A stretch of DNA of 32,000 nucleotides from Candidatus Saccharimonadota bacterium (GTDB lineage Bacteria; Patescibacteriota; Saccharimonadia; Saccharimonadales; Saccharimonadaceae): assembly GCA_002421785.1 (NCBI GenBank), contig DIRZ01000001.1, positions 1 through 32,000 of the forward strand, in the 5' to 3' direction. The translations under genes were made by a program, and so were the position numbers. Below are positions 6,488 to 22,716 of the stretch, piece by piece. Within the stretch, counting starts at the first letter, position 1. Each line of letters begins with the position of its first letter. The notes below the pieces were generated by a model that saw only the letters and a list, made by a program, of their open reading frames with translations, searched no databases and was not told where the DNA came from.

Positions 6488-7048
6488 ATGCCATACACTA
6501 ATTCTGAAGACACCGACGAATCAATCGTCACGCGCACGGTAGCGGGTGATATTGACGCCTACGCCGAAATCGTACAGCGCTACGAAGCGAAACTGCACCG
6601 TTACGTCACCTACCTATGCCACAATCGCACGATGGCAGATGACGTCGTACAGGATACACTGATTAAAGCCTACCAGAACTTGAACGGGTTCAACCCGCAC
6701 TATAAGTTCTCGTCGTGGATATACCGTATCGCGCATAACGAAACGATGAACGCCATCAAAAAGATTCGCTATACAACAGACGACATCGACGAACTACCAG
6801 ACCAGCACTACGACCAGGGTGTCGAAGAGCTCATCGATAGCGATATACTGAAACAGCATGTCCGCGGCTGCCTGGACAAGCTGGACCCCAAGTATCGTGA
6901 AGTCGTGCAACTCATCTATTTTGAGCACATGAAATATGACGAAGCCAGTGATGTGCTACGCGTACCGACGTCCACAATCGGCGTGTGGCTGTCGCGGGCA
7001 AAGGCACAACTAAAGGAACTGTGTAGGCAGCAAGGAGTAAAGCGATGA
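6488..7048 (+). CDS. ECF-type RNA polymerase sigma factor (sigma-70 family, group 4)
   Basis: Region 2 (DDVVQDTLIKAYQNL...FSSWIYRIAHNETMNAIKK) and region 4 (YREVVQLIYFEHMKYDEASDVLRVPTSTIGVWLSRAK) are both present. Confidence 0.9.
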   Translation: MPYTNSEDTDESIVTRTVAGDIDAYAEIVQRYEAKLHRYVTYLCHNRTMADDVVQDTLIKAYQNLNGFNPHYKFSSWIYRIAHNETMNAIKKIRYTTDDIDELPDQHYDQGVEELIDSDILKQHVRGCLDKLDPKYREVVQLIYFEHMKYDEASDVLRVPTSTIGVWLSRAKAQLKELCRQQGVKR

Positions 7049-7527
7049 AAAAGCAAGCGACGACAACCAGCAGCCCCATCGGCAGGAGCGTGATGGATCA
7101 GATTAAGAGTGGCAAAGTACACATGAAACCACGCGCGTACTATTGGCTTCTGAGTCTCGTTACTATTAGCGCAGTCGTTCTGGCCGGAATCACCATGACA
7201 TACCTTTCGAGTATCGTGTTCTTTTGGCTGCGTGTCGTGACTGCAGACACGATGGCCTATGGCGCCCGAGCAAACCTGAATGATGCAATCGCATCGTTTC
7301 CATGGTGGGCCCTCATTGCCGCAGCCATCTTGCTCTACGTCGCTGTTTCGCTCGTTCGCAAACAAGGGCGCATGTACAAACACAAAACCAGCAGCATCGT
7401 TGCGGTGATTGTGGCGGGCGCGATTGTCCTCGGTTTTGTGCTGTCGCTCCTCAACATTGGCAACTCACACACACCAAATACCTTCAACAAACCAACCCCA
7501 GGCCAGGGGTGGCAGCGGAATCGTTGA
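7045..7527 (+). CDS. Polytopic membrane protein, putative anti-sigma factor (by position)
   Basis: Its ATG overlaps the sigma gene stop (ATGA). AAGGAG lies at 7032-7037. It has several hydrophobic helices. The function is inferred only from translational coupling to the ECF sigma gene. Confidence 0.7.
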   Translation: MKKQATTTSSPIGRSVMDQIKSGKVHMKPRAYYWLLSLVTISAVVLAGITMTYLSSIVFFWLRVVTADTMAYGARANLNDAIASFPWWALIAAAILLYVAVSLVRKQGRMYKHKTSSIVAVIVAGAIVLGFVLSLLNIGNSHTPNTFNKPTPGQGWQRNR

Positions 7528-7589
7528 AATAATTTTGCCCTCCTAGCTGTATCACACATGCAAACATAACGAATAAGGAGATTTGCATT

Positions 7590-8027
7590 ATGAAGAAATT
7601 ACTGACACTAGGAATCGCGACGCTCGCGGTGGCTGGCATCGCCGGCGCAAGCAGCCTGACGGTTTCCGCACTGAACAGCCCAGCCAACAGCATCAGCGCT
7701 CGCATGGGCGCAGGGCAGGGGAATGGTCGCCAATCGTCACTTGAATCACGAGCCGCCGTGCTCGGGATGAGTGCAGCTGACCTAGAAAAAGCCCTTGAAA
7801 CCAAAACCATGTCACAGATTGCTGTTGAGCGTGGACTCACCGAGGAAACGTTCCGGGCAAAAATGACCGAAGCAGCCAAAGCTAGGTGGGAAGCACGCGG
7901 GCTCAGTAGCGAAGAAATCGCCACGCGAATCGCTGAGCGTGAAGCACGCCACACTGCCAACGCAGCCGATCACGAGTTCGGCAGCGGTGACGGCAACCAT
8001 CAGGGTGGTTACGGTCGAAACCGTTAA
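7590..8027 (+). CDS. Secreted hypothetical protein (signal peptide, helical charged repeats)
   Basis: AAGGAG lies at 7575-7580. The N-terminal signal peptide is MKKLLTLGIATLAVAGIAGA. A terminator follows at 8044..8074. Confidence 0.75.
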   Translation: MKKLLTLGIATLAVAGIAGASSLTVSALNSPANSISARMGAGQGNGRQSSLESRAAVLGMSAADLEKALETKTMSQIAVERGLTEETFRAKMTEAAKARWEARGLSSEEIATRIAEREARHTANAADHEFGSGDGNHQGGYGRNR

Positions 8028-8429: not shown

Positions 8430-8798
8430 ATGGGAAGAGTTTTCTACAAAGCAGCAGCCATACTCGTACTCGCATTATTAAATGTGATGTCGTTAGGGAT
8501 GCATGCGGCAGCGGCCCTTCCGGTAAGCGCCAGGCATCCACAGAACACCCCTCATCATGCGGCGCCCGCTAGCTGTTCCGTATTATACTCAGTTGCACCT
8601 ACCGATGAAGTGGCTATTAAAGTGACAGATGAAGACGAGGATGACGAGCCCCAACCTCCGTATCATGCTCGAATCCAGAATTCCCCTCTCTTGGCGCTTC
8701 TTATTCGACATAATCAAGAGGCGCGATTTGCCAGCGCTCGAAATCCGCCGCCTAACAGCACACCCGCCTACATCAAACTGGCAGTATTCCGCACCTGA
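8430..8798 (+). CDS. Small secreted protein, paralogue of 18461..18823 (unknown family)
   Basis: It has a signal peptide (AAAILVLALLNVMSLGMHAAAA). With the 120-aa protein it shares His...Cys, an acidic-Pro core (EDEDDEPQPP..Y vs NEDKDEPTPPEAPY) and a hydrophobic C-terminus (YIKLAVFRT vs VILTVNLRI). Confidence 0.6.
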   Translation: MGRVFYKAAAILVLALLNVMSLGMHAAAALPVSARHPQNTPHHAAPASCSVLYSVAPTDEVAIKVTDEDEDDEPQPPYHARIQNSPLLALLIRHNQEARFASARNPPPNSTPAYIKLAVFRT

Positions 8799-8844
8799 AA
8801 TTCGCTATTTTCGATAACGGTAAATAGTTTATTAAGGAGTGGGT

Positions 8845-9498
8845 ATGAATAATAAGAACAAACGGGTACTTATCGTATCAGTAGTTGCAACATTACTCAT
8901 TGTAGGAGTTGCGGTTTTCGTGCTACGCGACTGGTTATTTAGAGGGGTATCAGAACAGTTCGTACGCGAAACGACGCAGGTAGATCGGTCTTCCGACACC
9001 TACAAGCAGTACGCGTTGATGACAGGTGAGATGTACGATCGTATGTTTATCGCCAATATGATTACCCATCACCAAGGCGCAGTCGATATGGCAAAGATGG
9101 CGCTTGAGAATGCCAAACACCAAGAGCTAAAAGACCTGGCAGAGGCCATTATTCTAGCCCAAGAGAAAGAAATTACAAGCATGACGGCATGGCAAAAAAA
9201 GTGGGGCTATCCATCCACCGAGGGTGATACTATGATGGATCATAGCTCGATGGGCATGATGCACAGCATGGACAGTATGAATGCCGAGCTTGCGGGTAGG
9301 ACGGGCGATACTTTCGACAAAGCATTCCTCGAACAGATGATTACACATCACCAATCTGCTATCGATATGGCCGCCCCCGGTGAAAAGAACGCCGAACACC
9401 AAGAGCTAAAAGATCTAACCAACGTTATTGTCACCAATCAAACAAAAGAAATTCAGCAAATGAAGAAATGGCAAAAGGAATGGGGGTATAAGAACTAA
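8845..9498 (+). CDS. DUF305 family protein (two-repeat, His-His motifs), membrane-anchored or secreted
   Basis: AAGGAG (8834-8839) precedes ATG 8845. The motifs ITHHQGAVDMA and ITHHQSAIDMA are each followed by HQELKDL...W(Q)KKWGY. Confidence 0.85.
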   Translation: MNNKNKRVLIVSVVATLLIVGVAVFVLRDWLFRGVSEQFVRETTQVDRSSDTYKQYALMTGEMYDRMFIANMITHHQGAVDMAKMALENAKHQELKDLAEAIILAQEKEITSMTAWQKKWGYPSTEGDTMMDHSSMGMMHSMDSMNAELAGRTGDTFDKAFLEQMITHHQSAIDMAAPGEKNAEHQELKDLTNVIVTNQTKEIQQMKKWQKEWGYKN

Positions 9499-9579
9499 GC
9501 CCTTGTTATTCGTACAGACAATACGGGTTTAGTACTGTCGTAATGTAACTGTTCGGACTACAGTAGTAAAAGGAGAAAG

Positions 9580-10212
9580 ATGCGGAAGATAGCAATAATG
9601 ATAATCGTCGTAGTGACATTTGGCGGGGTTGTCTCAGGCGTGTGGTTATTGCAAAATCAATCGCCTTCGTCACCTGAGGCGATACCCTCGTTAATTAATG
9701 GTAGTAAAAGGGTAATTAATCCAGATGAGCATAGCTATACTGACATAGATTTTGCACAGAAAATGATTGTTCATGATCAGCAGGGCATCCAGATGGCAGA
9801 TATAGCAACGCGGAACGCAGCGAATGAAGAGGTGCGCATCCTCGCAATGCGTATAAGCGAAGGGTTATCCCGCGACACCGATCAATACGCGAGCTGGTTA
9901 AAAGAATGGGACGAAAAGTATTTTAATCTTTCAGATTTCCCCGAAATGGATGGCCACGATATGTATCCGACTTTTTCCGGTATGGCAAGTTACGAGCAGA
10001 TGAGCGTACTTGCAACCGCATCTGGTAATGAGGCGGCCAAGCTGTTCTTGCAGATGGCTATAGTCCATCATGAGGGAGCTGCTGAAATGGCTAATAGTGT
10101 AGCATTTGAAAGTTTGCAGTTTGGTCAGATGGTCGATTTAAAGGCCAGTACACTTAGGCGACAGGCGGAAGAGATCCAGACGATGAAGCAGCTGCAAGCT
10201 AATATAGAATAA
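9580..10212 (+). CDS. DUF305 family protein (first motif degenerate: VHDQQGIQMA; second VHHEGAAEMA)
   Basis: AAAGGAG lies upstream. It has an N-terminal TM or signal sequence and the DUF305 repeat architecture. Confidence 0.8.
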   Translation: MRKIAIMIIVVVTFGGVVSGVWLLQNQSPSSPEAIPSLINGSKRVINPDEHSYTDIDFAQKMIVHDQQGIQMADIATRNAANEEVRILAMRISEGLSRDTDQYASWLKEWDEKYFNLSDFPEMDGHDMYPTFSGMASYEQMSVLATASGNEAAKLFLQMAIVHHEGAAEMANSVAFESLQFGQMVDLKASTLRRQAEEIQTMKQLQANIE

Positions 10213-10222
10213 GAAAGGTCAT

Positions 10223-10870
10223 ATGAAGAATAAGATCTTAATTACAATCATGGTCGTGCTTGCACTGGCGGCAAGTGTTATTTGGTATCTAGTAGCGACG
10301 CCCGACCAACAGCAGGTTGAGACAGCGCAGCTTGGCACGCCCTCCGCGACAAAACAAGAACCAGCCGTAAACAATAGTACATACGCTAGCTTAGAGGGAG
10401 ACGCACTTGATGAGGCGTACATTGCAGATATGCTTGCTCATCACGAGGCAGCGCTCAACATGGCGGAGCAGGCTCAAGCGGTAACGGCGCATAACGAGAT
10501 TCGCACGCTCGCAGGCAATATCATTCAGACCCAAAGCCAAGAGATGATGAACATGCGGACATGGCAAGTAGAATGGGGCTACGAAGCCACCACTAGTGGT
10601 GGACATATGAGTCACGGGGGCGGTGGTGCCGATATGGCCGGCGACATGGTCGAAATGCAGAATAAATTGCGAGATTTGACAGGAGAAGCTTACGATAAGG
10701 AGTTCTTGATACAGATGATTATCCACCATGAGCAGGCCGTTGAAATGTCGCGCTACGTAGCGACCAAGGCGCTACATCCAGAGCTCAAAGACCTTGCAAG
10801 CGCAGTTATAAGCGCCCAAACAGCAGAAATAAACCAGATGAAGCAGTGGCAAAAAGATTGGGGATATTAA
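10223..10870 (+). CDS. DUF305 family protein
   Basis: The motifs are LAHHEAALNMA and IHHEQAVEMS, with ...WQVEWGY and WQKDWGY. It has an N-terminal signal or anchor. Confidence 0.85.
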   Translation: MKNKILITIMVVLALAASVIWYLVATPDQQQVETAQLGTPSATKQEPAVNNSTYASLEGDALDEAYIADMLAHHEAALNMAEQAQAVTAHNEIRTLAGNIIQTQSQEMMNMRTWQVEWGYEATTSGGHMSHGGGGADMAGDMVEMQNKLRDLTGEAYDKEFLIQMIIHHEQAVEMSRYVATKALHPELKDLASAVISAQTAEINQMKQWQKDWGY

Positions 10871-11502
10871 GCCTTACCATCTCTTGCGGATGACTTCTCG
10901 AAATCTCGGACAACCTGAAATACAAGGCACGGTACCAAAACGATACCTAGTAGCCACCACCATAATGCAAAATAACCAATTTCCATACTAGTTCCTACGA
11001 CAAGGCCATGTATGAATATCGCAACCATGGCGATAGCTTGTGACACGCCGATATATGGCCACACACCGCGGGCAGTGAGCTGACGTCGAAAACGTCGGAA
11101 AACAGGGTAAAGCAAGAATGTCGCAAGTGCGGCCATCGCAAGTGCTATTGCCCAAGCACGAAGCGGCCCGACATAGCTCACATAGCTTTCCGGAGGAAGT
11201 AGCCCCGTGTCAAGAAAGCGCTGCGTGAGAAAAATACCAGGGTGTAGTATGATAAGCGAAAGGACAACTCGCCCCGTCCATCGAGAGAATCGTGCGTTAC
11301 TTCTCGCGCCGAATCTCACAGTAGTCGCTGTGACGCATTGCACCCACATCGTCACCCACGCAAGAATGCCGAGAATTGGGAAAAACTGATACAATGAACT
11401 AATTTCGCTCGATGATGTCAGCAGCCAGAGGGAAATACTGATGGCATAGACACCCCCGAGTAAAACCCAGTGCGAGTAATGTTTTGTGAAGTATTGTGCC
11501 AT
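10867..11502 (-). CDS. Six-TM integral membrane protein with His in TM3 and TM5 (ferric-reductase/MsrQ-like, putative heme b protein)
   Basis: There are six hydrophobic helices. Conserved-looking His residues occur in LIILHPGIF and IFIHGLVVG. Its stop overlaps the convergent DUF305 stop by 4 nt. The family assignment is tentative. Confidence 0.6.
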   Translation of the reverse strand: MAQYFTKHYSHWVLLGGVYAISISLWLLTSSSEISSLYQFFPILGILAWVTMWVQCVTATTVRFGARSNARFSRWTGRVVLSLIILHPGIFLTQRFLDTGLLPPESYVSYVGPLRAWAIALAMAALATFLLYPVFRRFRRQLTARGVWPYIGVSQAIAMVAIFIHGLVVGTSMEIGYFALWWWLLGIVLVPCLVFQVVRDFEKSSARDGKA

Positions 11503-11537: not shown

Positions 11538-11936
11538 ATGAATAGGAAAACAGTCGCATTATTAGCAACCATCTTAATACTGAGCATAGCTATAGTAATT
11601 GGGGTCAGTGCCGGATTAAATCGTCAAGACCAAGAAACCACCCAGCAGGATGCACCGCAACCAACAAAGACGTTCACCGCAGAGGAAGTTGCCAGTCACA
11701 ACTCAAAGAACGACTGCTGGACAATCATATCCGGCCAAGTATACGATCTGACCGAGTACATAAATCGCCACCCCGGGAGTGATGAGATTCTTCGTGCCTG
11801 CGGAGCCGAGGCTACTACTCTTTTCGATGCCAGGCAGACGACAGATGGTAAGCCTGTCGGTTCCGGTGCGCCACATAGCCAAGCGGCTCGCGAGCAACTA
11901 GACCGACTTAAGATCGGGACACTAATAACTAATTAG
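11538..11936 (+). CDS. Membrane-anchored cytochrome b5-like heme-binding domain protein
   Basis: AAAGGAG lies upstream. The N-terminal anchor is VALLATILILSIAIVIGVSAG. The domain signature is FTAEEVASHNSKNDCWTIISGQVYDLTEYINRHPGS...TLFD...APHS. Confidence 0.85.
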   Translation: MNRKTVALLATILILSIAIVIGVSAGLNRQDQETTQQDAPQPTKTFTAEEVASHNSKNDCWTIISGQVYDLTEYINRHPGSDEILRACGAEATTLFDARQTTDGKPVGSGAPHSQAAREQLDRLKIGTLITN

Positions 11937-12188
11937 ATCGGTTTATTCGCGTAGAAATTTCTAGAACGCCACGTGGTTGACATGACAATACGTAACAAAT
12001 ACTGTCGTATTGGCATACCACTTGTAGCGCTGAAGCAATGAATCCAGGCTCTGTCTTTTATGTGGCAGAGCTAACTACTCATGCGTCAAATAAAAAAATT
12101 ACGAGAGCTCGATGATTTTATCATTTAAGTCCAATAACAAAAACCCATCATCTTTCGTGCGCGATTACTTCTGCTTGGTCCGGCGTTC

Positions 12189-12567
12189 TTGGCTGATATT
12201 GCGTATGATGATCAAAGGAACGTCATTCCCAGGGAGATATATCTCGATATCGATAGCGTACTGCCAGTGAATCAGTTAAGTGCAGCGAATTATACAGATG
12301 AATTCCTGCAAGCCATCCTAGAAAATATTCGTACACAACTCATTGGCTTACACCCCATAAGTGGCAGGGTAAAGATAGAGACAAGGATATACCAGCGCCA
12401 CACCTTAAACCCGAAACAGTGGTAGGGCTACTCGTTAAGGTTAAGCCGTCAGAATGGCACGACCTCAAAACAGATGCAATTGACTTTGAAAGCGATTTTC
12501 TATGGTTTGACGATGATCTTTGGCCGCAAGAACTGAAGGTACTTGAGAAGCACGAAGCAATCGAATA
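12189..12567 (+). pseudogene. Possible decayed HAD-like hydrolase gene (frameshifted)
   Basis: Frame A (TTG 12189..12425) contains EIYLDIDSVL, which resembles a DxDxV/T motif. Frame B (12409..12567) contains FLWFDDDLWPQELKVLEKH. There is no ATG, SD or promoter, and the two pieces are in different frames. Confidence 0.3.
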
Positions 12568-12715
12568 GCCTATCATTGTCGACCTCAATAAAGACCCTGA
12601 TATTCTACAAAAACTTACCCAAGTCATTAAGAGCTCATAGGCATCTAGTCTAATTCCACTTATATAGTCTGAGCAAACTTCTCATTTTACGGGCAAGGTT
12701 ACTTCAGCTAACTTA

Positions 12716-12743
12716 CCAAACCACGTCAGGAGCCGTGGTTTGG
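12716..12743 (-). terminator. Hairpin downstream of copA
   Basis: CCAAACCACG and CGTGGTTTGG form a perfect 10-bp stem 47 nt past the copA stop. The U-tract is weak. Confidence 0.45.
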
Positions 12744-12789
12744 TAATAATATATACGGCTAAGAGCACTAGGATCTAGCCTATCTCAAG

Positions 12790-15700
12790 CTAATCAGCAA
12801 CTACGAAACTCGCGTCGATAAAGTGCATAGTATCTAATGCGGTGTCAGTTTTTGGCAACGTATATACAATCGCATTGTTTCCAAAGAAGCCCTTGATGGT
12901 GTCGCCATCTTTCTTAAAAAGTTTGGCCTCTTTCATCATTTCGGCTTCGTTGCTACCGATATAAACAGGGTAATAGGTGCTGTTACCAATTTTCGCCGAC
13001 GATGTCGACTCAATCTTACCAGCCAGCTTTTCTGGTGTAGCGTTTTGGGTGAAGTAAAACAGCTTCGTGCTGCCATTCTCCTCTGCAACAACCTGCAAAC
13101 GAGCGGCCGTATTCAACTCAGCAAATACGCTAGGTGACAAGAAGTGGTATGAGTCAGCAAGTGTCCCAGTTGGCTTCAGTATACCGACCACTGTCACATT
13201 TTTTGCGCCAAAAAAGCTCGACAATACATCACCAACGTTCTTAAATAGCCCCTCTTCTTGCATCATTTTTGCTTCATCACTGCCAATAACCACGCCTCGA
13301 TTAGACATATCAGCGGAGCCACTACCTATGGCAAAATCGGCTGGCAATGTATTCACAGCGGCAAACAACTTTGGTGTACCGCCGTCAGCAAAAGCTACGG
13401 CATTATCTACACTAGCAAAGGTTTTGTTGATCAATTTGACACTCTCTTGAGAAACAAGGACGCCCCCCGCCATAGCTGTCTGCGATTCCATTTGAGAGCT
13501 AAGTTTAGCGAACGATACGAACAAACCGATAAATAACACGCCAATCGCGATAGGAGTTACCGTTGATACCCAGTTACGTTTTCCGGGGCGATAGCCGCGA
13601 AGCGTCAGCGAGTTTGTCACAACAGAGATTGAACTGAGCGCCATCGCAAGGCCAGCAAGTTCTGGCCGCAGTACCAACCCAGCAAACGCGAAGACGCGTG
13701 CTGCGATAGGTATACCGGCCACGTTATAAAACAAAGCAAAGAACATGTTTTGACGTATTTTACTGACAGTAGCTTTAGAAATGCGGATTGCTTCAACCAC
13801 ATCGCGCATATCGTTCTTAATGATAACGATACCGCCCGTTTCCATGGCAACATCTGTTCCACTGCCCATCGCAATACCCAGATCTGCCTGAGCGAGAGCT
13901 GGCGCGTCATTGATGCCGTCTCCAACCATGGCGACAACTTTACCCGAATCTTGGATGCGCTGAACATTCGAAGCCTTGTCTTCAGGTAACACTTCTGCAA
14001 GAACATTTGTAATGCCAACCTGAGCAGCAATCGCTCGGGCGGTTCGTTCATTGTCGCCAGTAATCATCCACGTTTCAATGCCACGTGCATGCAGTGCGTC
14101 AATTGCTTCTTTAGATGTAGCCTTTACGGTATCGGCGACGGCAATAACTCCAACGATTTCGGTTTCAGTCGATAAAATCATCGCGGTCTTACCACCAGCT
14201 TCTAGGCGCTCAATCTTCTTTTCGAGTCGCTCTAGTTGTATGCCGAGTTTTTCAACAATCAACCGACGGTTTCCAAAGTAATATACCCTGCCATCGACAC
14301 TCGCCTTAACGCCATGCCCTGGAATCGCTTCAAAGCCATTAATTTCTTGCAGCTTCACACCCTCTTCGTCGGCATAATGATAGATCGCCTCCGCAAGTGG
14401 GTGTTCGCTCTCACGCTCAATACTCGCTGCGATTTGCAGAACGTCATCTTCGTCATATGCTCCAAGGGCAACGATGTCGGTAACTTCAGGCTTGCCGTTG
14501 GTAAGCGTCCCTGTTTTATCAAATACGATTGCATTGACTTTACAGGCGATTTCTAATGGCTCGCCACCTTTAATAAGAATTCCGTGTTCAGCCGCTTTAC
14601 CAGTTCCTACCATCAGTGCGGTCGGTGTCGCGAGACCAAGCGCGCATGGGCAGGCGATCACGATAACGGCCGTAAAGGCCATTACAGAGAAGGCTAAGCC
14701 CGCTCCTAAGATAAAGAACCAGACGAGGAATGTAATGAACGCTATCCCAATAACCGCTGGTACGAACCATGAAGAAATTCTGTCGGCGAAAGCCTGAATA
14801 GGTGCTTTCGATCCTTGGGCGTTTTCGATAAGACGGATAATTTGAGACAGTGTCGTTTCGCTACCGACGCGCGTGGCGGTGAATTCAAAACTGCCCGTCT
14901 TATTGATAGTTGCTCCGACGACAGTAGCTCCGACGGTCTTTTCTACCGGCAAGCTTTCGCCGGTGATCATAGACTCGTCAAGCGCGGATGATCCTTTGCT
15001 TATCACACCGTCGACAGGAACCTTTTCACCAGGCCGAACTAAGATAGTATCGCCATTGGCGACCTGTTCGATCGGGATGTCTAATGTTTCGTCACCGCGT
15101 ATAACACGTGCTGTTTTCGCCTGGAGGCCCATCAGTTTTTTAATGGCATCTGAGGTTTTATTTTTTGCCCGTGCTTCAAGCCACTTACCTAAGATCACGA
15201 AGGTAATCAAGAAAGCAGCGGTCTCAAAGTAGAGTTCTGGAATTTTTAAACCATTCAGCCCAATTAACGACTGGTTTGAGATAGCAAATATCAGATAGTA
15301 CACGATGCTATACAGGAACGCCGTAGACGTACCAATAGCTATCAAGCTATCCATATTGAACGTTTTCATCTTCATACCCGACCACATGCCCTTATAGAAG
15401 CCTGCTCCGATAATGAATTGGACAGGAAGCGTGAGTATCAATGACACAATACCGAAGTACGGCGGAAGTATCTTACCGCCTGGCATGAATGGGAAAAAGT
15501 CGAGTAGCATAAAGTACAGCATAGGCAAGCTGAGTCCAAGGCTGACGAGGAACCTGTTACGCAAGCTAGTAATTGCTTTAGCTCGATTAGCTTTCTCATT
15601 CACTTCGGCTTCTTCATTATCAAGCGCCTCTGCGCGGTAACCAGCCCGCTTCACTGCCTTTAGCAGATCAGTCGTCTCCACGTTACCGTTCGTATTAACA

Positions 15701-16392
15701 AGCGCCTTCTCTGCAGAAAAGTTTACATTGGCCTTCTCGACACCCGGCACTTTTGAGAGTTGTTTTTCGATTAACCCAGCACACGAAGAACAATGCATGC
15801 CATAAATTGCAAGACGCGTCGTCGCAGCTTGTTTGCTAGATACCATCTCAGCATCATTGTTGCGTACAGGAGACGCGATGCTCTCAGTCTTGTTTTTGGG
15901 AACAAACACAGATGACAATGCCTGCACGATACTGGTTGCGGTCACTGCTTGGTTGGCAGATGCATAATCATTTATATTATGATCTTTTCCGTCAACAGTA
16001 ATCGACTTCGTGTCGCTCATTGTACCAGTAAAGGTCGGTCGGCCATTTGCATCGATACTTACGCTACCGTCGGCTACGGTCTGAAGCTCGACTCGAACGT
16101 GCTGCACCATACTAGGACTGTCAGTTTCTTTAGCATTTTTGGCTGTCTTGATAACGGCCTTTTCCTTGTCAGTCCCATCGACAAAGGTTGCATCGTATCC
16201 AGCAGATTTTACAGCAGTCAGTATCTCTTGTTCGCCTACTGCTTCCGTATCGAATGTGACCGTTCCACCTTTCTTGGGTTCGGATATTTCAAAGTCCTTA
16301 ATCCCTGGCAAGTCTTCAAACTCCGAGCCAATAAGTTTTTCGCAGGAGCTACAATGCATACCTGGAATTGATAGTTCGATTGTTTTGATCAT
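12790..16392 (-). CDS. copA: Copper-translocating P1B-type ATPase (CopA-like) with two N-terminal HMA domains and an unusual C-terminal extension
   Basis: The diagnostic motifs are GMHCSSC (twice), [16 protein letters not shown] (CPC), FDKTGTLT and [10 protein letters not shown]. After the normal end there is an extra TM helix and 231 further residues. Confidence 0.95.
12793..13485 (-). other. C-terminal extension of CopA (residues 970-1200) with two tandem ~60-aa repeats (13114..13296 and 12793..12969)
   Basis: The two repeats are [58 protein letters not shown] and [56 protein letters not shown]. The pattern is reminiscent of FtsX/MacB/LolCE extracytoplasmic domains. Confidence 0.55.
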
Positions 16393-16614: not shown

Positions 16615-18057
16615 TTATGTCGTTACCGTTATAGACCCACGTGGAATACCCATAGCACAGGCAATGGTGTACGTGCCGGGCTTGGTAGCGGTAAATGTTA
16701 GCTCTAACTTTTTACCCTTACGCAAGTACTGCGGTGTGTCATCAAGTCCAATGATCATGATCGTACTCATACACCCCGAACCATTATCTTGAACGTCAAC
16801 AACGAGCGTCGTCTTTTGTCCAACTTTTGCGGTAAATGTGCTTGGCACAATATCGGACTTCAATTTATATGTGGTGTTAAGGATGACCGATCCTTCTGAT
16901 GAAGCGGCCTTTTTAGACGTCGACGCAGATGTGGTTTTTGGTATCAGATCGTCCAAAGACAGTTTGATACCAGCAAGGTTGAAGCCGTTCGAGAAATTAA
17001 GCAAGGCCATCGCTATGACAACGACACCGACTATTCGGAAGAACCGTTGCGCAAACGCACCCTTGACTACCGAAGTGAGGCCGCCCAGGCTTAAAAGTCC
17101 AGGTGCAGTACCGATTGCAAATGCACCCATAATTATCGCAGCCTCAATCGGGTTACCGGTGCTTACAGCAAGAAGCTGCATCGCTTGCGTGAAACCGCAC
17201 GGTAAAAAGAATGTTGCCGCGCCCATCATGAACGCATTTTTATGACTGTATTCTCGCTCCTTACGCGAGGAGATGCCAAGTCTTTTTGCAATGCCACTTG
17301 GTAGCGTTAGGCCCTTAGTAATCCGCGGGAACAGCTCCGTTAACTGCAACCCGAGCACGAGCATGACGGCCCCAACCGCAATCGTTAGAAAACCAAGCAA
17401 CGTCCCCTTGAGGGCAAACGCCGACCCAATCGCTCCTATGACTGCCCCTAGCACGATAAACGATAGTATTCGTCCAAGGTTAAAGAATAGGTGCGGTTTA
17501 AATTTTTCAAATGGCGTTTGTGTTGGATGGTTTTCTGCGTACTTTGACGCGACACTGAGTACTAATCCGCCGATTAGCGCCATGCACGTTGAGAATCCAG
17601 CGGTCAAACCAATAATCAGCGCCATGGCTCCATTACTACCACCGCCACTCGTGGCTGAAGAGAGTATTTTATCCAGTCCTAAGACCTGAAATAGAAAGAC
17701 CAGCCCAGTAACGACAAAGAGGCCTATAAGGAAGTCTTTCCATATACGCTCGTTTCGGGTGAGCAGTGGCTTCTTTCCATCTTCCTCCCCGACTTCATAC
17801 CCCGCAGCCTCGACTGCATTTACGATTTGATCGTAATCGATCTTACTATTACTGGCAATCGTCGCAGAGTTAGTCTTCAGGCTTGCAGTTGCAGAGGTTA
17901 CGCCGGGGATTGATTCTAATTCGCTCGCAATTAACAGTTCACAAGAGGCACAGTGCATGCCTTTTATAGGGACTGTCCGTTCTTGAGCACGAGCTGTTTC
18001 ATTATCGTTTGGGTGTTGCATGTTTCGGTCCTTTCGGGATTTCTTATTTTTTGTCAT
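16615..18057 (-). CDS. HMA domain / 7-TM DsbD_2 (TauE-SafE-like) membrane domain / C-terminal cupredoxin-like domain protein
   Basis: The HMA domain contains IKGMHCASC. The membrane core carries the FSTCMA and FFLPCGFTQAMQ motifs. The C-terminus (TFTAKVGQKTTLVV...GTYTIACAMGIPRGSITV) resembles Cupredoxin_1. The listed ORF starts at TTG 18075; I prefer ATG 18057, with ATG 18021 as an alternative. Confidence 0.8.
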   Translation of the reverse strand: MTKNKKSRKDRNMQHPNDNETARAQERTVPIKGMHCASCELLIASELESIPGVTSATASLKTNSATIASNSKIDYDQIVNAVEAAGYEVGEEDGKKPLLTRNERIWKDFLIGLFVVTGLVFLFQVLGLDKILSSATSGGGSNGAMALIIGLTAGFSTCMALIGGLVLSVASKYAENHPTQTPFEKFKPHLFFNLGRILSFIVLGAVIGAIGSAFALKGTLLGFLTIAVGAVMLVLGLQLTELFPRITKGLTLPSGIAKRLGISSRKEREYSHKNAFMMGAATFFLPCGFTQAMQLLAVSTGNPIEAAIIMGAFAIGTAPGLLSLGGLTSVVKGAFAQRFFRIVGVVVIAMALLNFSNGFNLAGIKLSLDDLIPKTTSASTSKKAASSEGSVILNTTYKLKSDIVPSTFTAKVGQKTTLVVDVQDNGSGCMSTIMIIGLDDTPQYLRKGKKLELTFTATKPGTYTIACAMGIPRGSITVTT

Positions 18058-18211
18058 GGCTTGCTCCCATTCCAACCATCATTAACACCATCATGATGAT
18101 GCAAAAAAGCGGGGCTAGTACGAATAGGTACTTTGTATCGGTAAAGTAGGTGATGGCAAGCATCGCGACTACGCCGATAATCATCCATAGCATGTGCTTC
18201 TTGTGGTTCAT
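18044..18211 (-). CDS. Small two-TM protein, DUF2933-like (55 aa; below the ORF-track cutoff)
   Basis: Manual translation gives MNHKKHMLWMIIGVVAMLAITYFTDTKYLFVLAPLFCIIMMVLMMVGMGASHDKK. It starts 3 nt after the YHS gene stop and overlaps the next gene by 14 nt. The His-rich ends and Met-rich helix resemble DUF2933 proteins of metal-resistance operons. Confidence 0.6.
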   Translation of the reverse strand: MNHKKHMLWMIIGVVAMLAITYFTDTKYLFVLAPLFCIIMMVLMMVGMGASHDKK

Positions 18212-18911: not shown

Positions 18912-19385
18912 ATGAGCTCAGAACTGTTATCAATAGAGGAAGAAGTCTTCAAAGTACTCGCCAACCAAAAGCGGCTTGAGATTATATTGCTGCTCGAAAA
19001 CCGCGAGCTGAACGTCACTCAGATGGCGCAGATGCTCGGCTTGCGCCAGTCTAACCTTTCCCAACACCTTACCCTGCTGCGACAGCAAAAACTTGTTTCG
19101 GTGCGCAAAAATGGCCGTGAATCATATTATAAGCTCACCGACCAATCAATCGCAAAGGCTATCCGGACGATTCATGAAGTATTGCGCACCCAACACAGGA
19201 TAATGCTGCCACTCGATAGTAAGTCACTATTCCCGATTGTCACAGACCCAGTTTGCGGCATGCGCTTCAGTGCATCGCGGTCGATAGAGCATTTAACTGA
19301 CAGTGAGGGCGTGACTCATTATTTTTGCGCATCAGGCTGCAAACAGATGTATGAAATGACTAACCTCTCACCAGTGAATACATAG
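18912..19385 (+). CDS. ArsR/SmtB-family metalloregulator fused to a C-terminal YHS/TRASH domain
   Basis: The winged helix-turn-helix is LANQKRLEIILLL...NVTQMAQMLGLRQSNLSQHLTLLRQQKLV. The C-terminal domain is DPVCGMRFSA...THYFCASGCKQMYE. Confidence 0.9.
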   Translation: MSSELLSIEEEVFKVLANQKRLEIILLLENRELNVTQMAQMLGLRQSNLSQHLTLLRQQKLVSVRKNGRESYYKLTDQSIAKAIRTIHEVLRTQHRIMLPLDSKSLFPIVTDPVCGMRFSASRSIEHLTDSEGVTHYFCASGCKQMYEMTNLSPVNT

Positions 19386-19395
19386 GGAATAAATA

Positions 19396-21396
19396 ATGCA
19401 CCAGCACGACCATACTCAATACGGCGAACATACAAATCATAACAAGCACCAAGGGCATAGCCCCGGTCTTTTCAGGCGCAAGTTTTGGGTTGCGCTTACG
19501 TTGACAATCCCGACATTACTTTTTTCACCTGCAGTCCAGCAATGGATCAACATCAACTGGTCATTTAACGGCAGCGATTATATACCCGCAGTTCTCGGAA
19601 CAGCTATATTTATATACGGTGGGATTATTTTTCTAAAAGGTGCCTGGACTGAGCTAGCAATAAAACGTCCGGGCATGATGACTCTTATCTCCATGGCGAT
19701 AAGCGTGGCATTTGCCTATAGTGTGGCAGTGACATTCCGGCTGGTTGATGGAATGGATTTCTGGTGGGAGCTGGCGACATTGGTCACCATTATGCTCCTT
19801 GGGCACTGGTTAGAAATGGCCTCTGTTCAAAATGCACAAGGCGCTCTTGGGGAACTCGCCAAGCTTTTGCCTGATGAGGCTGAGGTGATTCATGGCGATG
19901 AAATTATGAAGATGCCAGTAGGCGAATTGGCTATCGGCAATCTCGTACTAGTCAGGCCCGGCTCGCAAGTTCCGGTTGATGGAGAAATTATTAAAGGTAA
20001 ATCTGATATTAATGAATCCATGCTCACCGGTGAATCAAACCCAGTCACAAAAAACATTGGCGCAGCGGTGATTGGCGGGACTATAAACGGTAGCGGCGCA
20101 CTGACGGTTAAGGTATTGAAAATAGGTTCAGATACGACACTTGCTGGAATTATGAAGCTAGTCACCGATGCGCAGGCTAGCAAATCAAGCACGCAAATCC
20201 TTGCCGATAAAGCAGCTGGCTACCTAACCTATCTTGCACTAGCTGCGGCGCTCACCACCTGGCTCGTGTGGTGGGCTGTTGGGGCAGAACCGGCATACAT
20301 ATTAGAGCGCGTCGTCACCGTGCTTGTCGTAGCTTGCCCTCATGCACTTGGCCTCGCGGTTCCGCTCGTTACTGCCATATCTACCACGCTTGCAGCAAAA
20401 AACGGCCTATTGGTTCGACAGCGCATGGCGCTCGAATCAGCTCGTAACATCGACGTAGTATTATTTGACAAGACAGGTACGCTTACCCAGGGAAAGCAGG
20501 GCGTTGCAGATGTGTTCGCTACTGATACTGCTCGAGTCCTAAGTATCGCTGCCGCACTTGAGCACGACTCTGAACATCCCATTGCCCGAGCTATCGTTGA
20601 GTATGTATCGAATCAAAGTCTGCCAAGCATTCCGGTTACAGATTTTTCCGCACTATCTGGCCGTGGTGTCCGCGGCAAAATCAATGATACATTTGTGTAT
20701 GCGGGAGGACCTCGGATACTAGAAGAGTTAAGTGCGATAGTTCCCACTGACATACAGTCGGCCGCTGACGTCGCCTCTGCTGATGGCAAAACTGTCATTT
20801 ATATTATCGAGGACACGAAAGCAATCGGAGCAATCATGCTGACAGACATTATCCGGGACGAATCCCGAGAAGCAGTTGCAACGCTACAATCGATGAACAA
20901 ACGCGTCGCGATGTTGACCGGTGATAACGAAGGCGTAGCAAAATGGGTAGCAAATGAATTAGGAATTACAGAATATTTTGCCAATGTCCTACCTGAGAAT
21001 AAAGCAGCTACAGTCAAACAACTCCAGCAAGATGGAAGCACGGTCGCAATGGTAGGAGATGGCGTCAATGACGCGCCCGCGCTGGTACAGGCAGACGTTG
21101 GCATAGCAATTGGGGCCGGTACGGATGTTGCCATTGAGTCCGCTGGAATTGTGCTGATGAGTAGTGATCCTCGCGGTGTTGCAAAAACGGTCAAACTGTC
21201 TAGATCTACGTATCGAAAAATGCTCCAGAACCTCGCATGGGCAACTGGCTACAATGTTGTCGCCATACCCCTAGCGGCAGGCGTTGCCTCTGGGCTCGGC
21301 GTTATATTATCGCCTGCCGTCGGAGCAATCCTTATGTCGCTATCGACCATTATCGTCGCTGTCAACGCCCAGCTGTTACGTAGTAGGCGGCTGTAA
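19396..21396 (+). CDS. copB: CopB-type (P1B-3-like) copper ATPase with a His-rich N-terminus and CPH motif
   Basis: The N-terminus is MHQHDHTQYGEHTNHNKHQGH. The diagnostic motifs are LTGES, VVACPHALGLAVP (CPH), FDKTGTLT and GDGVNDAPAL. There is no HMA domain. Confidence 0.9.
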   Translation: MHQHDHTQYGEHTNHNKHQGHSPGLFRRKFWVALTLTIPTLLFSPAVQQWININWSFNGSDYIPAVLGTAIFIYGGIIFLKGAWTELAIKRPGMMTLISMAISVAFAYSVAVTFRLVDGMDFWWELATLVTIMLLGHWLEMASVQNAQGALGELAKLLPDEAEVIHGDEIMKMPVGELAIGNLVLVRPGSQVPVDGEIIKGKSDINESMLTGESNPVTKNIGAAVIGGTINGSGALTVKVLKIGSDTTLAGIMKLVTDAQASKSSTQILADKAAGYLTYLALAAALTTWLVWWAVGAEPAYILERVVTVLVVACPHALGLAVPLVTAISTTLAAKNGLLVRQRMALESARNIDVVLFDKTGTLTQGKQGVADVFATDTARVLSIAAALEHDSEHPIARAIVEYVSNQSLPSIPVTDFSALSGRGVRGKINDTFVYAGGPRILEELSAIVPTDIQSAADVASADGKTVIYIIEDTKAIGAIMLTDIIRDESREAVATLQSMNKRVAMLTGDNEGVAKWVANELGITEYFANVLPENKAATVKQLQQDGSTVAMVGDGVNDAPALVQADVGIAIGAGTDVAIESAGIVLMSSDPRGVAKTVKLSRSTYRKMLQNLAWATGYNVVAIPLAAGVASGLGVILSPAVGAILMSLSTIIVAVNAQLLRSRRL

Positions 21397-21437: not shown

Positions 21438-22067
21438 ATGAAAAAAATATTCATCACCATAGCCATCACAGTAAGTCTAATGATACTAACTGGTATTGCC
21501 ATATCGTCCAGCAATACTCGGAATTCAAGCAACTCTGTAGCCGAACCGGTTACGAATAGTGGCACTACGAACAGTATGTATGCAAACATATCGGGTGATG
21601 AATTCGACAAAGCATATTTATCTGACATGATCGCACATCATCAGGGCGCCCTAAACATGGCAAGCTACGCACGCACAGAAACAACCAGCGGCCGCATCAA
21701 AGCACTTTGCGAAAGTATTTTGGCATCCCAAACCACCGAAGTCCAACAAATGCTCGCATGGCAAAAAGAGTGGGGGTATATTGATGGCTCAGACCCTCAT
21801 GCTGGCCATGCAATGGAAGCGGGTGGTGGCATGAGCGCTGACATGGCGAGTATGGAAGCGCGACTCTACGACACGACAGGGACTGCGTTTGACGAGGAGT
21901 TTTTGAGCGTGATGATACTCCATCACCAACAAGCAGTTGAAATGTCTCGCTACGCCGCAACCAATGCAAAACACCAAGAGCTGAAAAACCTGGCTCAGGA
22001 TGTTATTCGTGAGCAGAATAAAGAAATTGCCGATATGCAACAATGGCAAAAGGAGGCGGGCAACTAA
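21438..22067 (+). CDS. DUF305 family protein
   Basis: The motifs are IAHHQGALNMA and ILHHQQAVEMS, with WQKEWGY. It has an N-terminal anchor or signal sequence. Confidence 0.85.
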   Translation: MKKIFITIAITVSLMILTGIAISSSNTRNSSNSVAEPVTNSGTTNSMYANISGDEFDKAYLSDMIAHHQGALNMASYARTETTSGRIKALCESILASQTTEVQQMLAWQKEWGYIDGSDPHAGHAMEAGGGMSADMASMEARLYDTTGTAFDEEFLSVMILHHQQAVEMSRYAATNAKHQELKNLAQDVIREQNKEIADMQQWQKEAGN

Positions 22068-22068
22068 T

Positions 22069-22716
22069 ATGCGGAGGTGGACTATGGTGCTAGCACTCGT
22101 AGTCACTAGTGCTGGTGTTGCGACCAGCGCCCCCGTCATCCGCTCGGTGTTTTTCCCGGCCGCTCCACGCGTCGTCACGCCCGCCACTTCAACGCCACCA
22201 CAAGGGCCAACAGAGCAGGACGTCAGCGCTGAGCACAATGTCTATGACAGCGATCTCGCCAAAAAGTTTGTTCTGTACCACGAGCTTGCCGCTCAGCTAG
22301 ACCAGCATACACTTGACGTCGCTGTGGAACCAGCGGTGCGCGAATTCGCTGCGCAACAATACCGCTACAACAACGAACAAGTTGCGCTATATAGCGCCTT
22401 ACTGCGTTCATTGAATGAGTCTTTTCCGCGGTTAGAGGATTATCCGAAGATTCCCGGAAGTAGCTGCGGCACCTATCCAACGTTTCCGGGAATGTTGCCG
22501 CATGGAGACGTTACTGCATTTCTGGAAACGACAGCCGATACCGTTGGCGCACCCTACCTGCGGCTCATCACCCAGCAACGTAATGACATCTTGACGACAA
22601 TTTCGGCTAACGAAGAATTTGCCAATTACAAACAGCTCTCAGATATCCGCAAGGAGTTCCTGGCGGCCAGGCGAGACAGCCTCAGGCAGCTACAACAACT
22701 GCAGCAACAAAATTAA
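22069..22716 (+). CDS. Divergent DUF305-like protein lacking the His-His motifs
   Basis: Compare [17 protein letters not shown] with MYPTFSGMASYEQMSVL of 9580..10212, and [11 protein letters not shown] in place of HHxxA. It has a signal peptide ([21 protein letters not shown]). The alternative start ATG 22084 has GGAGG 6 nt upstream. Confidence 0.6.

Follow-up and report, generated by a model that had tools for sequence, protein, structure and literature searches.

What becomes of Cu+ once a CopA pump has carried it across the membrane, and might the pump itself hold the protein that receives it? To our knowledge, the fate of Cu+ after release by CopA is understood only in diderm bacteria, where CusF and CusCBA take over, and we know of nothing on this step in the wall-less or monoderm-like, ultra-small cells of the candidate phyla radiation (CPR) and the DPANN archaea. 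The question is raised by a copA gene of a Candidatus Saccharimonadota bacterium, which lies in the stretch of DNA that we analyzed (positions 1 to 32,000 of contig DIRZ01000001.1, assembly GCA_002421785.1; hereafter, the window). Its minus-strand open reading frame (ORF) of 1200 amino acids (aa) encodes a CopA core followed by a ninth transmembrane (TM) helix, TM9, and a 231-residue tail (nucleotides 12793..13485; hereafter, the module). This protein is a CopA with a new domain architecture, and its module, as we read it, is a new, unannotated branch of the MacB_PCD-like fold. For the protein as a whole, we lean toward a Cu+ pump with a TM9-tethered, MacB-related Cu+ acceptor on its exit side.

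The core of the protein is a complete copper pump. Pfam recognized an E1-E2_ATPase domain (aa 423-603), a Hydrolase domain (aa 620-837) and two HMA domains in the ORF. The NCBIfam model for Cu-translocating P-type ATPases, TIGR01511, scored 620.6 bits against a cutoff of 397, with the alignment ending at aa 932, and TIGR01525, with a cutoff of 346, scored 660.7 bits; NF007952, the equivalog model for E. coli CopA, scored 684.7, under its cutoff of 1316. All P-type catalytic motifs were found (TGES477, DKTGT625 and GDGINDAP824), the signature of the Cu+ transmembrane site is complete (CPC581 in M4, YN889 in M5 and MALSS917 in M6), and CxxC occurs at aa 14 and 201. These results agree with an earlier reading of the sequence (the original prediction), which had described a complete CopA core with two HMA domains and the TGES, CPC, DKTGT and GDGINDAP motifs, ending near residue 935. 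The core is a member of the P1B-1 Cu+-ATPases, whereas the overall architecture is a variant, as it departs from the canonical eight TM helices with a cytoplasmic C-terminus. The two HMA domains are separated by ~120 aa (aa 71-191, window ~15820-16182) that match no family; a similar insert is present in a homologue (P0081), and this segment may be an additional uncharacterized cytoplasmic domain.

A hydropathy scan located the eight core helices expected for CopA plus one extra, with a 19-residue peak (2.16) equal to those of the core TM helices, in keeping with the additional hydrophobic helix that the original prediction had seen after the core; 238 further residues follow its end at aa 962. 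In CopA, the last of the eight TM helices (M6) ends in the cytoplasm (PMC7558416). A ten-residue segment directly precedes TM9 on the predicted cytoplasmic side. Among 105 fused sequences, the 15 residues before TM9 carry 3.79 K/R and 0.1 D/E, compared with 1.37 K/R and 1.6 D/E in those after it, and a positive-inside bias across TM9 is present in 100 of them. Homologues in which the module is a standalone protein begin with a signal-anchor helix. Because TM8 ends in the cytoplasm, K/R are biased to the near side of TM9 and the module is acidic and free of Cys, we predict that the tail is outside the cell, with TM9 oriented N-in/C-out. This prediction, which is drawn from charge bias rather than from a dedicated topology predictor, coincides with the earlier proposal that an odd extra helix would place the module outside.

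The same ninth helix and an FA[KR]LSSxM linker (equivalent to aa 930-969) also occur in other P1B ATPases with different C-terminal ectodomains. TM9 is followed by a YncE/DUF5074-type beta-propeller in P0109, by an S9/S33 alpha/beta hydrolase in P0146, which is from a Parcubacteria metagenome-assembled genome (MAG), and by a common ~220-aa His-rich domain with no Pfam match in P0120 and P0123 (43% identical to each other); the chain of P0081 ends just after TM9. TM9 may be a general attachment platform through which CopA acquires ectodomains, and its occurrence with such different domains suggests a broader, unrecognized class of P1B ATPases with extracytoplasmic C-terminal domains.

The module itself arose by internal duplication. 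Its halves are homologous, as BLASTP aligns them at 38% identity across 96 aa (E 3e-14), and its Smith-Waterman self-alignment score of 122 compares with 28 ± 4.8 in 1000 shuffles (z = 19). The original prediction had recognized 231 residues after the helix, which are present as it described them, and two tandem repeats of ~60 aa within them; the duplication is real, but the repeated unit is ~100 aa long and the ~60-aa segments are its best-conserved cores. Across 222 non-identical sequences, each unit retains G-x-x-E-A-x-M-M, G-D, F-G, T and D-x-x-H. The conserved methionines are almost never substituted by Leu or Ile, and 217 of the 222 sequences lack Cys in the module. The tail encoded in the window contains two His in all, which are the conserved H1083 and H1190.

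The architecture recurs widely. The identical 1200-aa protein has been recorded from at least six independent assemblies. A word-indexed search returned ten clusters, and in five of them a single chain combines CopA TM helices, TM9 and the tail. When 1.84 billion representatives were searched exhaustively with a profile, 107 matched at E<=1e-30, either fused to P1B ATPases or standalone (~245-285 aa with an N-terminal TM helix); the profile alignment held CopA TM5-6 columns, and part of the match list is CopA-only. A one-genome-per-species scan, queried with CPR sequences only, found relatives in 138 species, the best being 93% identical (a Candidatus Saccharibacteria MAG), and tail identity among relatives at the protein level ranges from 35 to 93%. 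When ORFs were re-derived at 80 retrieved loci, the tail was fused in frame to ATPase sequence in 76, as the original prediction had suggested checking with a search of the tail alone. An ATPase bearing DKTGT, CPC and GDGxND is the in-frame partner in 69 of the 80; four (L068, L076, L082 and L083) are fused if UGA is read as sense, as in a Gracilibacteria/Absconditabacteria-type code, three are truncated yet already include ATPase sequence, three further loci could not be assigned, and in one, from Woesearchaeota, the module stands alone. On complete contigs, fused ORFs are 1014-1246 aa long.

The record titles of carriers name Saccharibacteria, Peregrini-, Falkow-, Parcu-, Gracili-, Levyi-, Morani-, Shapiro-, Woese-, Collier- and Berkelbacteria. 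Titles that name Gammaproteobacteria, Pseudomonadales, Bdellovibrionales, Acetofilamentum (Bacteroidota) and Actinomycetota are doubtful or unconfirmed; the Acetofilamentum title belongs to L083 and conflicts with the apparent UGA sense codon of that locus. One protein (P0024) consistently has W in place of an expected G, apparently an artefact of the translation table.

No Pfam or NCBIfam model covers the module, and neither full-text literature searches nor a recent review of bacterial copper homeostasis (PMC7558416) turned up a P1B ATPase described as having an extracytoplasmic C-terminal domain. Within Patescibacteria the architecture is common, but it is unannotated and apparently undescribed. 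Of the original prediction's concern that the extension might be a common, already annotated feature of CopA, the first half was borne out and the second was not. Given how common the architecture is in this group, what is surprising is not its rarity but its organization and what that implies for copper hand-off. The module defines an unannotated protein family of more than 100 clusters at 50% identity in at least 138 species.

The affinity of the module emerged by two independent routes, both of borderline significance, which lends substance to the earlier remark that the tail resembles FtsX/MacB ectodomains. The first route was through sequence families. MacB_PCD was the only or the top Pfam family of consensus sequences emitted from the 222-sequence family hidden Markov model, with scores of 27.0 bits (E 6.6e-6) and 28.8 bits (E 1.9e-6) against a gathering cutoff (GA) of 27; the second, standalone consensus matched in two stretches, which we take to be one per unit. 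Individual members matched less often (3 of 30 at E<=1, best E 5.2e-5). Two homologues have precomputed PF12704 matches. P0212 reaches 27.1 bits (GA 27) over profile positions 131-197 of 207, and P0207 reaches 25.5 bits, below GA. Overall, the matches cover profile positions ~105-197 of 207, that is, the C-terminal ~90.

The second route was through predicted structure. AlphaFold2 (AF2) modelled aa 940-1200 with a pLDDT of 80.6 (80-94 in the domain part) and a pTM of 0.72, and unit 1 alone (aa 978-1095) with a pLDDT of 93.8 and a pTM of 0.87. Each modelled unit is a small alpha/beta domain with the order alpha-beta-beta-beta-beta-alpha-beta-beta-alpha-beta. The top Foldseek matches of both models in the PDB were exclusively periplasmic domains of type VII ABC transporters (E 0.011-0.16, probability up to 0.98): 3is6_A, YbbP, HrtB, LolC and LolE for the whole tail, and YbbP 9ge7_A (E 0.011, probability 0.98, TMq 0.53) for unit 1, followed by LolE 5udf_C (E 0.023) and then 3is6_A, 9ge6_A, 7ark_E and 9xro_E. 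Direct profile comparisons were less informative: an hhalign comparison with three E. coli periplasmic domains gave a meaningless alignment, and a PDB sequence search with the tail profile matched CopA TM5-6 only, via flanking columns, leaving the tail itself unmatched. The E-A-x-M-M motif is absent from E. coli LolC, LolE and MacB. From these borderline scores and models, we read each unit as distantly related to the Porter-like, C-terminal half of MacB_PCD and as lacking a Sabre subdomain; that lack is suggested by unit length and secondary structure rather than by superposition. Pfam found no FtsX domain (PF02687) in the 1200-aa protein or in the standalone homologues, and because the protein has neither an FtsX TM domain nor an ABC partner, it does not have a type VII permease architecture. 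The MacB/FtsX-type ectodomain would thereby extend beyond ABC transporters.

In bacteria and archaea alike, the genomic company of the module ties it to copper export. Among DPANN archaea (Woesearchaeota and Micrarchaeota, by source names) the module is a separate protein of 245-285 aa, consisting of an N-terminal TM helix and two units, and its gene was within a copA operon in all six contexts that we fetched. The gene order is CopZ, HMA-membrane protein, CopA, module, cupredoxin, or else module, CopZ, CopA, HMA-protein, cupredoxin. The DPANN CopAs (721-744 aa; L001-L004 and L087-L091) are 52-53% identical to aa 189-935 of the window protein and end exactly after TM8; TM9 sits where the standalone partner has its membrane anchor, although the two helices are dissimilar. 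The window protein is the fused form of this two-gene pair, a Rosetta-stone link.

The other partners are also conserved. Directly upstream of copA in the window are genes for a CopZ-type chaperone and for a membrane protein that joins an HMA domain, a DsbD_2 domain and a C-terminal cupredoxin-like domain. Among 54 related loci of at least 11 kb, a homologue of the DsbD_2-type protein adjoins the fused copA in 50, with its cupredoxin domain found in 33 and undetected in 21. The cupredoxins of the DPANN clusters (6 of 6) are homologous to this C-terminal domain, which is fused to the DsbD_2-type protein in the window and encoded by a separate gene in DPANN. The copper cluster is syntenic between the Saccharibacteria window and DPANN. 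With CopA cores 52-53% identical, this is a clear case of a gene cluster common to CPR and DPANN, and it suggests cross-domain transfer between these bacteria and archaea.

The Rosetta-stone pairing of the module with copA, by fusion or by operon, indicates that the module works together with the pump, on its exit side. Copper chemistry offers a candidate role for it there: CopA does not release free Cu+ but hands it to periplasmic CusF, whose site consists of one His and two Met (PMC7558416). In the mechanism that we propose, the CopA C-terminus would re-cross the membrane through TM9 and expose the two tandem alpha/beta units, each of ~100 aa, outside, where the module would sit over the Cu+ release site and capture Cu+ as it exits. 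Each unit offers E-A-x-M-M and D-x-x-H as candidate ligands, which would give it a CusF-like chemistry of the Met/His type without Cys. Captured Cu+ might then be freed away from the membrane, or passed to the co-encoded extracytoplasmic cupredoxin-like domain or to DUF305 proteins; the conserved synteny with a cupredoxin-bearing membrane protein makes such a hand-off plausible. Given the copA linkage in two domains of life, the predicted outside location, the Cys-free Met/His conservation and the co-encoded cupredoxin and DUF305 proteins, we infer that the module is an exit-side partner of the pump, most likely a tethered Cu+ acceptor.

Several results weigh against this account, to which, taken whole, we give slightly better than an even chance. 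The tail itself has no Pfam or NCBIfam match at E<=1, neither model has a Foldseek PDB match at E<=1e-3, and an hhalign comparison with a thin LolE/LolC profile (Neff 2.4) brought the motifs into register without significance (E 0.24). The conserved Asp is common to LolC and LolE and is possibly structural. Adjacent Met residues in a helix point in different ways, and one of them may be a mere core residue. Because TM9 bears quite different ectodomains in other ATPases, a single shared copper-acceptor role after TM9 is not obvious.

Alternatively, the module may bind no copper and instead serve as a protein-docking platform that holds the cupredoxin-like domain, or a DUF305/CopM-like protein, at the pump exit, with its conserved residues belonging to an interface or to the core of the fold. 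Periplasmic domains of type VII ABC transporters work via partner proteins (MacA, LolA, EnvC/PcsB), and they are the sole structural or sequence relatives of the module that we found. The tight synteny with the DsbD_2-type protein and the cupredoxin, and the shuffling of domains among the four components, also fit docking. However, near-invariant Met-Met and His in a Cys-free module are more typical of Cu(I) sites than of interfaces, and cupredoxin went undetected in 21 of the 54 loci. We consider docking rather unlikely.

A mechanical or regulatory cap is less probable still. TM9 would pack on M5/M6 and relay E1-E2 movements by MacB-like mechanotransmission, so that the module would gate the exit, block re-entry of copper or dimerize the pump, with the tandem units mimicking the paired domains of a MacB dimer. 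The relatives of the module are mechanotransmission domains, the tandem duplication is in effect a pseudo-dimer, and TM9 with its KLSSxM linker is kept even where the ectodomain differs. In DPANN, however, the module is encoded as a polypeptide of its own and its anchor helix is dissimilar, which shows that it can do without a covalent tie to M6.

A cell-envelope or host-contact function unrelated to copper, whether as an FtsX-like activator of wall hydrolases or as an episymbiont adhesin, seems very improbable. FtsX ectodomains do activate peptidoglycan hydrolases, and the carriers are ultra-small, probably episymbiotic lineages; however, CPR bacteria and murein-less DPANN archaea alike keep the module fused to CopA or in an operon with copA, and for that reason we reject wall-hydrolase activation as its main role. 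No hydrolase or adhesin genes recur nearby, and we found no support for the contact with a host surface that the original prediction had entertained. Finally, the separateness of the two genes in DPANN might suggest that the extension is artefactual, produced by a frameshift, by loss of a stop codon or by an assembly chimera joining copA to a downstream gene, but we reject this as next to impossible on recurrence: the same product in independent assemblies, in-frame fusion at the great majority of species-level loci, and a conserved tail protein.

Returning to the tethered Cu+ acceptor that we favor, a fuller picture can be sketched, which we regard as possible but doubtful. CPR and DPANN would share a four-component system (CopZ, the HMA-DsbD_2 protein, CopA and the module/cupredoxin), and the fused protein would be the first P-type ATPase with a covalently tethered exit-side metallochaperone, made from a duplicated, repurposed MacB-type mechanotransmission domain with Met-Met/His sites. 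TM9 would couple the module to the E1-E2 cycle and act as a general ectodomain platform, and copper would pass to the outward-facing cupredoxin. A conserved outer-face module, tethered to the pump or encoded in its operon, is a concrete, testable candidate for the step after Cu+ release in CPR and DPANN.

Table 1. Features of the copA locus, with window coordinates and the observations that define them (motif percentages over 222 sequences).
Feature	Position	Strand	Evidence
Whole ORF: CopA core, TM9 and tandem ectodomain module	12790..16392	-	Stop codon 12790-12792; same sequence in at least six independent assemblies
Cu+ P1B-1 ATPase core, aa 1-936	13585..16392	-	Two HMA domains, 8 TM helices, catalytic and Cu+-site motifs including MxxSS
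HMA domains of CopA core	16183-16392 and 15622-15819	-	Pfam
TM9, aa 942-962	13507..13569	-	Hydropathy; positive-inside bias; kept in CopAs with other ectodomains
Conserved KLSSxM linker after TM9, aa 963-969	13486-13506	-	Conservation
N-terminal helix of module, aa 970-994	13411..13485	-	AF2 models
Unit 1, aa 995-1095: predicted alpha/beta, Porter-like, distant MacB_PCD relative	13108..13410	-	AF2, Foldseek, MacB_PCD matches of homologues and consensus
Unit 1 motif E1040-A-K-M1043-M1044	13261..13275	-	E 95%, M1043 91%, M1044 97%
Unit 1 motif D1080-S-Y-H1083	13144..13155	-	D 99%, H 95%
Unit 2, aa 1096-1200: duplicate of unit 1	12793..13107	-	Identity to unit 1 and shuffled self-alignment; AF2; two-stretch MacB_PCD match of consensus
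Unit 2 motif E1149-A-E-M1152-M1153	12934..12948	-	E 96%, M1152 83%, M1153 97%
Unit 2 motif D1187-T-M-H1190	12823..12834	-	D 100%, H 94%
CopZ-type HMA chaperone gene, 70 aa	16389..16601	-	Stop overlaps copA start codon by 4 nucleotides
HMA, DsbD_2 membrane domain (about 7 TM), C-terminal cupredoxin-like domain	16615..18075	-	Pfam; conserved upstream partner gene

A metal island surrounds copA in the window (8839-10870, 21438-22067, 11538-11936 and 18912-21396). Of its four DUF305 paralogues, three are in tandem. The island also encodes a cytochrome b5-like protein with a membrane anchor, an ArsR/SmtB regulator whose C-terminal segment is YHS-like, and a second P1B Cu-ATPase of 666 aa that has neither an HMA domain nor a C-terminal module. 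The copA stop codon and the convergent cytochrome b5 gene are separated by about 850 bp (11937-12789) with a lower G+C (0.42) and no recognized gene; the sole ORF in this interval, of 95 aa on the minus strand (12340-12627), matches no family, and Rfam and tRNA scans of the window returned nothing. Further ORFs in or beside the island have no Pfam or NCBIfam match (10867-11502 on the minus strand, 7045-8027, 8430-8798 and 22000-22716), and one of the unmatched ORFs, which lies directly between the cytochrome b5 gene and the DUF305 genes, encodes a multi-TM protein of 211 aa.

Among known systems, the pump itself is closest to the CopA-type P1B-1 ATPases (LpCopA, AfCopA and E. coli CopA), with which it shares the full catalytic core, N-terminal HMA domains, the CPC/YN/MxxSS site and an operon with a CopZ chaperone and an ArsR-type regulator. 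Canonical CopAs have eight TM helices and a cytoplasmic C-terminus, whereas the window protein adds a ninth helix and 231 residues that are predicted to be extracytoplasmic; in A. fulgidus CopA the C-terminus is a cytoplasmic HMA domain (PMC7558416).

The module resembles the MacB_PCD domains (PF12704) of MacB, LolC/LolE, FtsX, YbbP and HrtB in being a predicted extracytoplasmic alpha/beta domain right after an N-in TM helix and in sharing the motif register V-I-G..A..L/M....G-D....V-x-G-I-L..g..D. Its units differ in length (~100 aa without a Sabre-sized insertion, compared with ~200 aa for a Porter with an inserted Sabre), in being duplicated in tandem within a single chain, and in their E-A-x-M-M and D-x-x-H motifs, which are specific to the module family. 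In place of an FtsX-type 4-TM domain and an ABC ATPase, the module has one preceding TM helix and a P-type ATPase partner.

In its proposed role as an extracytoplasmic acceptor of Cu+ from CopA, and in its Cys-free composition with conserved Met-Met and His as candidate ligands, the module is reminiscent of CusF and of CopC/PcoC-type chaperones. However, CusF folds into an OB-like beta-barrel and has a Met2His(Trp) site, whereas the modelled fold of the module is alpha/beta, and CusF was matched neither by the tail in Pfam nor by its models in Foldseek. CusF is also soluble and untethered and feeds CusCBA in diderm bacteria, whereas the module is tethered and its copper binding putative. The CupA/CopA pair of Streptococcus pneumoniae offers the nearest organizational parallel, with a membrane-anchored accessory protein dedicated to CopA and encoded in its operon; CupA has a cupredoxin-like domain, as does a product of the window cluster. 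CupA acts on the cytoplasmic, entry side of its pump (PMC7558416), whereas the module, which has another fold, is predicted to act on the exit side.

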